Assembly: GCA_977030845.1 (NCBI GenBank)
Contig: OZ365115.1
Span: forward strand, 13,826,001 to 13,890,000
DNA length: 64,000 nt
Direction of reading: 5' to 3'
From: Fimbriosthenelais zetlandica
Lineage: Eukaryota
Shown: one piece after another, positions 3,046 to 32,895 of the stretch
Position numbering within the stretch: the first letter of the stretch is position 1
How the letters are laid out: every line of letters starts with the position of its first letter
Translations under genes and position numbers: made by a program
The notes under the pieces: model-generated
Database searches by the model: none
Told to the model about the DNA's origin: nothing
What the model saw: only the letters and a program-made list of their open reading frames with translations

Positions 3046-14151
<11,106 letters not shown>

Positions 14152-27000: not shown

Positions 27001-28735
27001 ATGATGTTAATCACGTACGCCGCGTTCCTGGTTCTAGGAGGGCTATGTATCGTCCTACAGTACTGGGCTAAGAGGACCCGCCGGGACCCCGCCGTGGGTA
27101 ACAACCCGACCTTCCTACAGTTCCAGCAGGGCTACTTCTCAGCTTACTACACGGCTCTACTCGCCGACTGGCTCCAGGTGAGTAATAATTGAATTAAAAA
27201 TATATAATTAATGGAATAATCTTTAATAAAATATAATTATAATTAGGAAAACCCCTAAAAAGTGTTTGTAGAAACTTTCCAGCCTGATAGTTTGTCCGTG
27301 CAAGATTTATTTTCAAAATATATAATGTGAAATTGTTTAGATGAATTGATTTCTACACATGGATGCACCTTCTGTGTACAAAAAATGACTTGCTAAAGAT
27401 GGCTGACTCTCTTGAATCTCTTACTCTGATGCATTTAGGAATTGAACAGAGAAGATGAAATGTCCTCATTCTGTTCTAGGGGCCATATCTGTAAAAAGTC
27501 TCAAATAAACTGTACCAATGTAAGGGAGATAAACTAATAATGTTTTATTTCTCTTGTAGGGGCCGTATTTATATAAGCTGTATCAACACTATGGTTTCAT
27601 GGAGGATCAGATCGCCACCCTTTACGTGTGTGGGTTCGCCTCCACTGTGCTACTCGGGACCTGGGCGCCTATCGCCGCTGATAAGTTTGGTCGTAAGAAG
27701 CTGTGTATCGTGTTTACCGTCATCTACTCGCTGGCCTGCTTCTTCAAGCTATCACGGAGTTATGGCATATTAATCCTGGGCCGAGTGTTGGGGGGCGTGG
27801 CCACCAGTCTTCTCTTCTCAGCCTTCGAGGCCTGGTACCTCCACGAACATTTAGAAAACGACTTCCCTAAAGAGTGGATCCCTGTGACATTTAACAAAGC
27901 TAATGTATGGAACGGTGGGCTGGCTATACTGGCCGGTGTAGTTAGTAATATTGTATCAGAGTGGTTACAGTTCGGGCCGGTGTCGCCCTTCATGCTGGCC
28001 ATAGTGTGTTTAGTGGCCTCAGCCGTGGTTGTTCTAACTCAGTGGAAGGAGAATTACGCTAAACAGCAGATCAGGTTCACTAAGCCGTGTTTACAGGGGT
28101 TGAGGGAGATTACCAGTGAACCTCGTATATTCCTCATCGGGTCTATACAGGCTATGTTTGAGAGCGCCATGTATCTGTTTATCTTCCTCTGGACGCCTGT
28201 ACTCGACCCCGGCAAGCCGTCTCTCGGTATCGCCTTCTCTAGCTTCATGGTCTGTATTATGATCGGCTCAGCTCTCTATCAGATCCTCGCATCACGTGAT
28301 GTGCCCGTCCTACACCTCCTGTCTATATCTGTGGTCATCTCTCTCATTGGTAACATCCTCTGTGTCCTAGCGACTAACCCTGACAACATGAATAGAAACC
28401 TGGCCTTTATCTCCTTCCTGGTCATAGAGGTGGGTGTAGGCATCTACTTCCAGGCTATGGGTAAAGTAAGGAGTAAAGTATTACCAGAAGCTAACGCGTC
28501 TAGTATCATGAACTGGTTTAGAGTACCACTCAACCTCATCGCGTGTCTAACGCTCATGTCGTTACATAGTAACACCATGAGGCATGGTAACAGAATGTTG
28601 TTTGTAACGTGTGTAGGTTTGTTAGCTATCGCCACTGTTTGTTGTTTTAAGTTTATTAGCATGGTGCGTGATGATGAGACATTCCAATCTGACATGGAGG
28701 CCACAGAAGATGAAACAGCGCCAGTCGAGGCGTAA
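27001..28735 (+). CDS. MFSD5: Major facilitator superfamily protein 5 (molybdate-anion transporter family), 450 aa, 2 coding exons
   Basis: Exons 27001-27177 and 27560-28735. Motifs LLADWLQ|GPYLYKLYQHY, GGVATSLLFSAFEAWYLHEH, FIFLWTPVL and IMNWFRVPLN match MFSD5. Confidence 0.97.
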
Positions 28736-29367: not shown

Positions 29368-29374
29368 GTGCTAC

Positions 29375-29639
29375 TGTTATACGCTACGAATGGTGGCGAC
29401 ACTTGTGGGGATTCCCTGAACCACATACCTGGATGCCAGGATGGGAATCCCACGAGTGACGTCACCAGTAGAGAAATGCCAGACGACCGCCAAATATGAA
29501 AGAGACTAGACCACTGTTCTACAGCACTGCTACTCTTTCGTCGCCTCACACCTGCTGAATAATATCCAAGTAAGTAATACAACTTGTATCAATCCCTAAG
29601 GAGTATTTTACCTGTCCCTGGATAGAAATATTCCTTACA
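29375..29639 (+). repeat. 5' LTR
   Basis: tgttatacgc...ttccttaca, a direct repeat of 32491-32755. Confidence 0.97.
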
Positions 29640-29640
29640 C

Positions 29641-29656
29641 TGGTGCCAGGAGTGGG
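29641..29656 (+). other. Primer-binding site, tRNA-Leu-like
   Basis: TGGTGCCAGGAGTGGG lies 1 nt after the LTR. It is complementary, with one mismatch, to the 3' end CCCACTCCTG(A/G)(C/T)A-CCA of metazoan tRNA-Leu as I recall it. Confidence 0.75.
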
Positions 29657-30471
29657 GTGAGCATCTGGCTACCTTGGCTGGAGCCATACGGGCCGTTCCT
29701 CACAAGCAAACAGGGTACTCCCCCAACATGATGATGTTGGGGCGGGAGGTTTGGCAGCCAGACAACATTATCTTCGGGATGACAACAAAAGAAGAGAACA
29801 CCCCCCCTCCAGAGTATGTCCAGAGGCTCAGAGACTCCATGGAAGAGGTGCACCGCCTGGCTCGAGAAAACCTTGGAAGAACCCAGCACCTGCAGAAAAA
29901 AACCTATGACTTGACACTGCATGAATCAGAGTACACCAGGGGTGATCTAGTATACAAACGGGACACTTCCAGCAAGAAGGGGCAAAGCCCAAAGCTGAGG
30001 CCCATCTGGAAGGGACCGTACCTAGTAGAGCAAGTGCTTTCCCCAGTACTCTACAAGATCCGAGGGCAGAAGAAATCAGAGGTGATACACCATGACCGGC
30101 TGCGCATCTGCCAGGACAGGGCTGTCCCACTCTGGATGCGGCGCATGCGCCATCGCATGCTTGATTTGGACTCAACCACCCCTTGTGATGGGTCAACGGA
30201 TGGTGATGACTCTGTTGGTGATGACCTGGACGAGCTTGGTCTTCCGGCTCTCTTCAAGGAGCCCAGCCAGAGTGTTATAAGCCACCCCACCCGCACTGGC
30301 GCCAAGGCCAACACGGCCGATGCTGGGCAGGGTGACCTTGACCCTGATGTTCCTATTTCAAGTCACGAGACCACTGCTGAGTTGCCGCGCCGTTCCAGAG
30401 CAGGTCGGAAGATTAGACTGCCAGCACGGCTACGCGACTCTGTGCGCAGTCTCACTAAGCTCTTTCACTAA
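29641..30471 (+). pseudogene. Truncated gypsy integrase C-terminus (end of core plus GPY/F region)
   Basis: The open frame EWGEHLATLAGAIRAVPHKQTGYSPNMMMLGREV...LRPIWKGPYLVEQVLSPVLYKIR...VIHHDRLR matches the gypsy integrase tail. The N-terminal zinc finger and DDE core are missing. Confidence 0.88.
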
Positions 30472-30579
30472 CATGGGTGCATCTGGTAGCACCGGTTCAG
30501 TTGGCTAAGTGCATGCCTAGACTTAAGATCAGGGAAGCTGGAGAGAACTAAATCAACTTCCCTTGTAATATTTTTCAGA

Positions 30580-32235
30580 ATGTCTAACCAGCTCCCAAGG
30601 ATCAGCATCACCGTAAGGGCAAGGCCCAGTGGAGACCTGCCACCTAGCCGTACTATTACCGTGCACCAGGACCCACAGCCGGGAAATGCCCCGGACGACC
30701 ATGCCTCACTGAGGCATTCAGACCCTCACAGAGACGAGGCCCCCTCCGTACCACGGCCACCCAGCCCACGCCATCCCCCCGAAACCCTGGGCCATGACCC
30801 GGATACACAGAACAAACGCAAGCGTAAGCGAGAGGAGTCTGGGGAGGGAAATCAAACGAAGCAAAAGAATACCGATAGGGGCTATGGGTGGTGCCCGGTT
30901 ACACCTGACTGTGACCACGCTCGGGACCGGCACCTCCACCGGCATGTGGCCTGGGCCCATCTACCATTTTACATGGACCCATGGACGGCATGCTGGGGTT
31001 GCCGGACTCAGTGGGGCCGTCGGACCAGCCTTGAGACCCACCTCATGACGTGCCGGCACCCACGCACATTTGGGGAGGTTACTCTGGAAGAATGGGCTGA
31101 ACTGGCTCTCGGGATGCTGGGGGAGTTAGCCCAAAGTCTGGGGGAAGGGGTGGAGCAGTTGCCTGCCTATGCCAGGCGGAGATGCCGCATGCCCCAACAA
31201 TATGAGGTTACGGCGGAACAGGAGATCTTGATGGATCTGTTTGACCGGGCTGTCGAAGGTCATATTCCAGCCCATCGCTCCATCGTACAGCCCTCAACGT
31301 TGGGGAGCCTCCTTCATTGGCGGATCCAGGCCGCTCTAATCGCCAACTTAGACAAGAGGGACAGGAGGAGGATCCGGAGCATCCGGAAGCCGGCCCCCCT
31401 GCCACGACGTATCGTTCCCAACGGGGTCGATGCTCACTGCCACCTTCGTGATCAATGGGAGCGGCTGGGGGGTCGGGCCGCAGTGGAAGCTGCAGGCAGG
31501 CACCTCCGGGGACAGATGGAACAGCTGGAGGTAATAGATGTAGCCTGTTTCCCTCGCGACTGGAAAACAAACAGCCGTCACCTGATGCCTGGCGCCACAG
31601 TCCACAGGGCAGTGGGCATACATCCCGCAGTGGTGCCGGAAACAATTGCAGCGGCAGGACGCATTATAGATGAAGCCAAAGCCGCGACGGGCGCTGGACA
31701 TGTGATTGCTGTTGGGGAGATTGGGATCGACCTCTACCGGCAAAGCACTGAGACCCTGTTAGCACAACAGCTGGTCCTTAACTGCATGGCGTCACATGCA
31801 GTCCAGCAGGGGCTCCCCATAGTGCTTCACTGCAGGGACAGCGGTGATGGACGGGCCCAGAAGGAATGTAGAATGACGGTACGACAGGTGGTCCCCAGGG
31901 ATCACAAGATCCAGCTCCACTCATTTGATGGGGGAATGCTGGACATGTGCCAGTGGCAGGCACTGTTCACCCGGGTCTATTTCAGTTTCTCTGCCATCAT
32001 CTTACGGCCTGGCCATCACCGCGAACTGAGTGATGTGGCAAAGACTCTCCCCCTTGACCGCATCCTGCTCGAAACCGATGCCCCCCACCTGCCTCCTCCT
32101 GGAACCCGTCGTGGTGAGCACGGTCCTCCCACAATCGTGACCATCGCGGAACACCTGGGCAAACTCCGGAGACAGCCAGGAGGCCTTATTCTGGAGGCAG
32201 CGTCGAGAAATGCGAAGGCATTTTTCGACCTGTAA
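30580..32235 (+). CDS. tatD: 551-aa protein: low-complexity N-terminus, NLS, two Zn-finger-like motifs and a C-terminal TatD-family metal-dependent DNase domain
   Basis: Uninterrupted ORF. TatD motifs VDAHCHL (HxH), AVGEIGIDL (E), VLHCRD (H), QLHSFDG (H) and LLETDAP (D) are all present in the expected order and spacing. Confidence 0.92.
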   Translation: MSNQLPRISITVRARPSGDLPPSRTITVHQDPQPGNAPDDHASLRHSDPHRDEAPSVPRPPSPRHPPETLGHDPDTQNKRKRKREESGEGNQTKQKNTDRGYGWCPVTPDCDHARDRHLHRHVAWAHLPFYMDPWTACWGCRTQWGRRTSLETHLMTCRHPRTFGEVTLEEWAELALGMLGELAQSLGEGVEQLPAYARRRCRMPQQYEVTAEQEILMDLFDRAVEGHIPAHRSIVQPSTLGSLLHWRIQAALIANLDKRDRRRIRSIRKPAPLPRRIVPNGVDAHCHLRDQWERLGGRAAVEAAGRHLRGQMEQLEVIDVACFPRDWKTNSRHLMPGATVHRAVGIHPAVVPETIAAAGRIIDEAKAATGAGHVIAVGEIGIDLYRQSTETLLAQQLVLNCMASHAVQQGLPIVLHCRDSGDGRAQKECRMTVRQVVPRDHKIQLHSFDGGMLDMCQWQALFTRVYFSFSAIILRPGHHRELSDVAKTLPLDRILLETDAPHLPPPGTRRGEHGPPTIVTIAEHLGKLRRQPGGLILEAASRNAKAFFDL

Positions 32236-32470
32236 GTGCGGACCGGTAGACCAGATGTAAATAGTAACTGCCAGTCCCGAGGACGACCACTGTACATATT
32301 TATTACTTGTCCTCAGGCTGGCTAATGTACATAGGACATGTATATATACAGATATATAACAACTACTTGGCCAATGGCCGGTTACCAACGACTGACGATG
32401 ATTGTCCCCCCACCCATCCTAGTCTTGGCCCCTGGCCGGTGACCATGGTAAGGGATGTCTACCATCTCCT

Positions 32471-32490
32471 AAAAATAAAAGAGGGGAGAG
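32471..32490 (+). other. Polypurine tract
   Basis: aaaaataaaagaggggagag immediately precedes the 3' LTR. Confidence 0.9.
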
Positions 32491-32755
32491 TGTTATACGC
32501 TACGAATGGTGGCGACACTTGTGGGGATTCCCTGAACCACATACCTGGATGCCAGGATGGGAATCCCACGAGTGACGTCACCAGTAGAGAAATGCCAGAC
32601 GACCGCCAAATATGAAAGAGACTAGACCACTGTTCTACAGCACTGCTACTCTTTCGTCGCCTCACACCTGCTGAATAATATCCAAGTAAGTAATACAACT
32701 TGTATCAATCCCTAAGGAGTATTTTACCTGTCCCTGGATAGAAATATTCCTTACA
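32491..32755 (+). repeat. 3' LTR
   Basis: Direct repeat of 29375-29639. Confidence 0.97.
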
Positions 32756-32895
32756 CTACCGGTACAGTTTTGACCTGATTTGATGTTTTCATTTAAAAAA
32801 TAAAATATCAAAAAGCATGCTTAATGTCTTCTTAGTTCTGATAAATGGTAGGCTATTGGGTAAAGCGTTCGATGGATATTGATTTTGGTTCATAT

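Follow-up and report, generated by a model that had tools for sequence, protein, structure and literature searches.

The window analyzed here (64,000 nt of Fimbriosthenelais zetlandica DNA, contig OZ365115.1:13,826,001-13,890,000, forward strand; coordinates are positions in this window) contains a recent, gag/pol-deleted copy of a Ty3/Gypsy-clade retrotransposon, the third open reading frame (ORF3) of which encodes a predicted TatD nuclease that is probably expressed from a spliced subgenomic RNA joining 29569 to 30579. Taken alone, neither of the two splice sites of this copy exceeds chance expectation; the strength of the case lies in the conservation of the sites across families of related elements.

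Layout of the element and origin of its deletion

The TG...CA long terminal repeats (LTRs), the target-site duplication, the tRNA primer site and the polypurine tract (PPT) define the element as a Ty3/Gypsy LTR retrotransposon, and, because the two LTRs are 100% identical, the insertion of this copy is recent. The initial annotation had placed the TatD ORF between integrase and PPT, and this arrangement is borne out, with an integrase remnant upstream and the PPT downstream. The features, all on the plus strand, are as follows.

29371-29374, +: target-site duplication, left copy (CTAC, 4 bp)
29375-32755, +: whole element, two LTRs flanked by CTAC
29375-29639, +: 5' LTR, 265 nt, TG...CA, 100% identity with the 3' LTR
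29457-29464, +: CRE-like motif TGACGTCA in the 5' LTR
29479-29484, +: initiator-like site, putative start region, overlapping a 12-nt block invariant among family A LTRs
29496-29558, +: upstream ORF of 20 codons, inside the predicted first exon
29570-29575, +: predicted 5' splice site, CAA/GTAAGT, LTR position 196
29641-29658, +: primer-binding site and gag/pol deletion junction, 18/18 nt complementary to host tRNA-Leu(TAA) including the CCA end
29659-30471, +: integrase remnant (end of core, GPY/F, C-terminal tail)
30472-30579, +: spacer, 108 nt, with branch-like CTAAA (30548), pyrimidine tract and predicted 3' splice site (AG ending at 30578)
30580-32235, +: ORF3, 551 aa
31426-32226, +: class II (HxH) TatD domain
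32477-32490, +: polypurine tract
32491-32755, +: 3' LTR, 265 nt, with a second copy of the donor at 32686
32756-32759, +: target-site duplication, right copy (CTAC, 4 bp)

The element is inserted within another short repeat, and an MFS_5 (MFSD5-like) transporter gene (27001-28735) ends about 640 nt 5' of the 5' LTR on the same strand. In the LTR comparison, the CRE-like motif was found in 4 of the 9 LTR types, and a loose initiator-like match, a motif picked post hoc, was present at LTR position 97-136 in all 9. The ATG of the 20-codon upstream ORF is missing in several sister LTRs.

A domain search of the element found that gag, protease, reverse transcriptase (RT) and RNase H are missing from the window copy, and the sole part of pol upstream of ORF3 is the C-terminal part of integrase (Integrase_p58_C). 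The deletion begins exactly after the 18-nt match to tRNA-Leu(TAA), and this tRNA copy overlies an integrase look-alike, the counterpart of which lies at positions 5575-5600 of a related locus (L019). At the junction, a W-G codon pair is found, compared to W-D in 5/5 other integrases. The primer site of the family A relatives spans 11 nt only; a site of 18 nt is native to family E. Given the complete tRNA match and the W-G pair where other integrases have W-D, the loss of gag and pol is likely to have resulted from a mis-aimed plus-strand transfer, in which plus-strand strong-stop DNA with the 18-nt tRNA copy would have annealed to the look-alike within the integrase sequence; alternatively, a plain microhomology deletion may account for it. 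If the transfer was indeed mis-aimed, the window copy appears to record an error of reverse transcription at single-base resolution.

The TatD nuclease and the clade of elements that carries it

The TatD_DNase domain occupies aa 283-549 of ORF3 (E 2.7e-36) and is preceded by a variable N-terminus, a basic KRKRKR cluster (aa 79-84) and a Cys/His zinc-finger-like and helical region (approximately aa 105-270), the Cys/His part of which is conserved across 33 aligned rows. Class II TatD proteins are defined by an HxH motif together with E, H, H and D metal ligands, and TatD enzymes act as 3'-5' exonucleases and as AP endonucleases (PMC10085689). The TatD residues of ORF3 are H286, H288, H348, E380, H417, H447, E498 and D500, and the metal ligands among them (H286, H288, E380, H417, H447 and D500) are invariant or at least 90% conserved in the 33 rows; by its HxH motif and its E, H, H and D ligands, the domain is thus predicted to be a class II TatD. 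The structural model (pLDDT 93.5) matches YcfH in Foldseek with E 2.2e-13, along with further TatD structures (best E 2e-13), and the modeled fold is a TIM barrel. Neither a signal peptide nor a transmembrane stretch was detected in the four ORF3s inspected, with the top 19-residue hydropathy at 1.25-1.44. An envelope identity was rejected, ORF3 being a TatD protein with no hydrophobic stretch, as was an integrase-TatD fusion, given that pol stops before the spacer and ORF3 starts with its own ATG.

A search of a representative library returned 1256 proteins at E up to 1e-10, and many of the best 150 match over both the N-terminal and the TatD regions; a search with aa 95-280 returned only leads below 0.9 (C2H2-like). 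In two of the database relatives (P0118 and P0153), a NADAR domain is fused to the TatD domain.

TATDN2 reportedly resolves R-loops. The ORF3 protein would be a two-metal 3'-5' exonuclease/AP endonuclease, nuclear as judged by its basic cluster, with the zinc-finger-like region as a putative nucleic-acid-binding module. The most likely role, which we consider a little short of an even bet on these sequence features, would be clearing of RNA:DNA hybrids or of single-stranded by-products generated during the element's own cycle; repair of cDNA or of integration sites is possible but on the unlikely side, and trimming of silencing RNAs seems decidedly unlikely.

A protein search of the same genome yielded 129 TatD matches among 138 candidates, many of them full-length and intronless, with 36-51% identity, and most of the first 20 loci examined show the order gag, pol, TatD. 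A full-length relative has a pol with the order PR-RT-RH-IN and a zinc-knuckle gag (Pfam), and the window copy groups with this relative in the integrase tree. The six 5' LTRs that could be located share 97-100% identity with the 3' LTR of the respective family, which indicates that several families were mobile recently. The Gag of the TatD clade starts with a helix-hairpin-helix motif (Pfam HHH_3, family B). The LTR family is also found outside the canonical arrangement: three loci (L015, L016 and L023, on C21 and C11) are gag-only derivatives, and two (L017, 1158-3638 on the minus strand, and L018) are non-autonomous elements with the same LTRs and another ORF of 827 aa that has no Pfam match, ends in residues similar to the TatD C-terminus and has an ATG that a single base separates from a CAG with a weak tract. 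At four further loci (L025-L028, on C1 and C3), the family A LTR, primer site and leader are repeated in large tandem units, about 17-25 kb apart and close to contig ends.

In the integrase tree, from which family G is absent (it gave no integrase row), the TatD-bearing elements form one side of a branch with 100/99 support (7 rows versus 8 outgroup rows). In the TatD tree (45 rows), a 100/99 branch holds 8 element rows and 3 other, nested rows. The host TATDN2-like gene is multi-exon and belongs to a separate clade (100/99 versus 99/99), in a tree whose backbone lacks resolution; with the element TatD and this host gene in separate clades, the possibility of a TATDN2 orthologue, that is, a recent host capture, was rejected. 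Synonymous sites are saturated between families (pS 0.69-0.84), and the dN/dS values on four stretches of family A are approximately 0.17, 0.28, 0.08 and 0.20. Because TatD forms a single clade, with saturated synonymous sites and low dN/dS, these sequences mark it as an old cargo under purifying selection, a long-retained third ORF; the contention that TatD is not a passive passenger is thereby upheld. That at least 8 diverged families keep TatD under such selection implies a need that recurs among LTR elements, possibly clearance of hybrid or cDNA by-products, repair or evasion of silencing.

Two other occurrences of TatD in this genome deserve mention. Subgroup F (L038, L081 and L082) is nested in the LTR clade and is present in several copies that follow an acceptor, but neither gag nor pol nor an LTR was found near the three loci; a recapture or a domestication is possible. 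At L052 (C11:2720166-2730165), a TatD ORF, which clusters with TATDN2 in the TatD tree, on a long branch, comes after a Helitron Rep/helicase ORF of 2262 aa with an OTU domain and is likely to represent a second, independent capture of TatD by a mobile element.

Splice sites and proposed expression of ORF3

The initial annotation described a strong acceptor two bases before the TatD ATG. The acceptor is in place, with its AG at 30577-30578, and one base (A30579) separates it from the ATG at 30580. It ranks 2 of the 196 AGs in the element (shuffle P 0.002) by scores that, for acceptors and donors alike, are simple home-made weights rather than trained models. A pyrimidine tract and a YAG 0-4 nt before the ORF3 start are found in 8/9 families (distances of 1, 3, 0, 2, 2, 4, 1 and 4 nt in families A, B, C, D, D2, E, H and I, respectively), and in these eight the acceptor ranks 1-5 among the 196-747 AGs per element. 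As the spacers are AT-rich, each was shuffled at fixed composition, family G being set aside as ambiguous; P values of 0.0002-0.04 were obtained in 8/8 families, which share ancestry, so that combined P values overstate independence. No BLAST similarity was detected between spacers of different families. Family G has a weak acceptor only, and its ORF3 frame does not follow.

Retention of the acceptor in other copies had been set beforehand as the observation on which the proposal was to stand or fall. The proposal passes this check: a strong acceptor 0-4 nt upstream is kept in 28 of the 33 copies with a locatable ORF3 start; the other five are four fragments in foreign flanks, with CAG only, and one family H copy without an acceptor, the two sister copies of which do have it. 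The ORF3 acceptors resemble host intron ends. Among six gag starts used as a control, three have no AG within 25 nt, one has a low score and two have moderate scores (8-9). Ten outgroup Gypsy elements include six with other Cys-rich ORF3s and an acceptor, two with a downstream ORF and no acceptor, and two without ORF3; judging from these sequences, the wiring of an acceptor before ORF3 is not special to TatD. Sister Gypsy clades (L059, L061, L063, L065, L067 and L075) encode Cys/His-rich ORF3s with no Pfam match, each preceded by an acceptor at a distance of 0 to about 23 nt and one with a second acceptor further on.

The donor claimed inside the LTR, GTAAGT at 29570-29575, is present and has a twin at 32686 in the identical 3' LTR. 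It is the best U1 match among the 53 GT sites between the LTR start and ORF3; GTAAGT occurs 32 times on the plus strand of the window, and about 20% of shuffled LTRs hold GTAAG. Among relatives, 7/8 LTR types have GTAAG at a distance of 27-107 nt from their end (1.7 expected, P ~9e-5; E2, which has the site, was excluded from the count as a near relative of E). The motif is missing from the short D2 LTR, which belongs to a broken copy, and family I yielded no LTR. The LTRs that share the position of GTAAG are mostly unalignable. A test for the last 110 nt (P 3e-7) was defined post hoc and is given no weight. Five runs are invariant across 13 family A LTRs, among them ATCCAAGTAAG, with 55% of the columns invariant overall. 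Both ORF3-less outgroup LTRs contain GTAAG, at the level expected by chance for their lengths (819 and 2047 nt), which are too long for a donor control. Five ORF3 starts gave 30 genomic matches, none of which is a processed (spliced) DNA copy; four family D matches that start just before the acceptor were rejected as LTR joins, being fragments in unrelated flanks. On this evidence, the case for the donor appears good, yet weaker than that for the acceptor.

Under the proposed scheme, transcription would start near LTR position 100-135, and the unspliced RNA would be used for gag-pol and for packaging. A splice between the LTR donor and the acceptor would remove the primer site, gag and pol, leaving the ORF3 ATG as the first one past the junction; the spliced message, lacking the primer site, would be unable to prime reverse transcription. 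In the window copy, the predicted intron is 1009 nt long, and 20 ATGs lie between the donor and ORF3 on the unspliced RNA. The initial annotation expected expression even from this deleted copy. Because both splice sites and the open ORF are kept, this copy could express ORF3, at about even odds; expression may be held down by the 20-codon upstream ORF and by host silencing.

The choice of donor is where an alternative carries the most weight. The acceptor could instead be paired with a leader donor situated past the primer site, with the GTAAG of the LTR kept mainly for a U1 block of 5' LTR polyadenylation, in which case the window copy, having lost the leader, would make little or no ORF3 message. 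Leader donors tie with or beat the LTR donor in 5/7 families, outscoring it in the full-length families B and E and tying in C, D and G; the donor of the errantivirus Springer lies 43 nt past the LTR, and U1 at the foamy-virus LTR donor suppresses 5' polyadenylation. However, the LTR site is the best donor in families A (3/3 copies scored) and H, the foamy donor is the major splice donor too, so that both roles are compatible, and no canonical AATAAA was found in the LTRs examined; we regard the leader donor as unlikely.

An unspliced route to ORF3 expression, through an internal promoter or through re-initiation once pol has been translated, with the T-rich stretch and AG acting as a promoter or translation element, would have precedent in the accessory ORFs of the Drosophila MDG1 group, and would fit the AT-rich spacer and the two outgroups (O9 and O10) that have a downstream ORF and no acceptor. 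The YAG at 0-4 nt beats composition-preserving shuffles in 8/8 families, however, and resembles host intron ends, which makes this route improbable. Finally, a captured host exon would be expected to bring an acceptor along, and the subgroup F TatD lies behind an acceptor outside any LTR element found, as if TatD were passive cargo and its acceptor a remnant of the exon. Against this stand the intronless, selectively constrained TatD, its one old clade apart from the multi-exon host TATDN2-like gene, and an acceptor that persists despite saturation at neutral sites; with both dN/dS and the trees contradicting it, a passive cargo is hardly credible. Splicing from the LTR donor to the ORF3 acceptor is the reading that we favor.

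Comparison with known systems

The bdelloid rotifer LTR retrotransposons Juno and Vesta carry non-env ORF3s that encode a DEDDy exonuclease or a GDSL esterase, and the study describing them gives spliced messages as the typical route of ORF3 expression (PMC5408684). The resemblance to the TatD elements extends to a Ty3/Gypsy-type element with an enzyme as the third ORF, including a 3'-5' exonuclease with intact catalytic residues. The enzyme here is a TIM-barrel TatD with a zinc-finger-like module, in contrast to the DEDDy enzyme of rotifers; positions can be given for the splice sites, and the cargo is retained across the whole of one clade. The word 'TatD' does not occur in the main text of PMC5408684, neither 'TatD' nor 'splic' occurs in PMC13524379, and the excerpt of PMC7828637 adds nothing on donor position. 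In the openly accessible literature that was searched, we found no report of a TatD-bearing LTR element.

The errantiviruses gypsy, Springer and Kuruka express env from a subgenomic mRNA, and the Springer donor lies downstream of the LTR (10.1101/2025.10.13.681963, PMC13669377). The analogy with errantivirus env drawn by the initial annotation holds for a third ORF between pol and the PPT with a conserved acceptor ahead of it and a GTAAGT donor near the 5' end. It fails for the protein, which has no envelope features, and for the donor, which, unlike that of Springer, is inside the LTR and upstream of the primer site; the TatD element is not an errantivirus.

In its donor, the element is closer to foamy virus, in which the major splice donor is located in the R region and U1 binding there suppresses 5' LTR polyadenylation (PMC3694450); in both, the donor is duplicated in the two LTRs and precedes the primer site. 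By analogy, the LTR donor of the TatD element could also guard against early polyadenylation. Unlike foamy virus, however, this element is not a retrovirus and has no canonical poly(A) signal that we could find in its LTRs.

With the class II TatD nucleases (TATDN2, TATDN3 and the E. coli proteins YcfH and YjjV), the element protein shares the HxH motif, the metal ligands and, as predicted, the TIM-barrel fold, but forms a clade of its own, not nested among the TATDN2 or bacterial rows, and has an extra N-terminal Cys/His and helical region that is common to many database proteins. We tentatively consider, as a broader scenario that is less likely than not to hold, an old, probably multi-phylum and undescribed Gypsy lineage in which an active zinc-finger/TatD nuclease replaced env, is spliced from a foamy-like LTR donor, acts in counter-defence or hybrid clearing, and is supplied in trans by deleted copies. 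With the TatD elements, the env slot would be more than the place of an envelope gene, becoming a general one for accessory genes that are spliced separately, with TatD as a new class of cargo.
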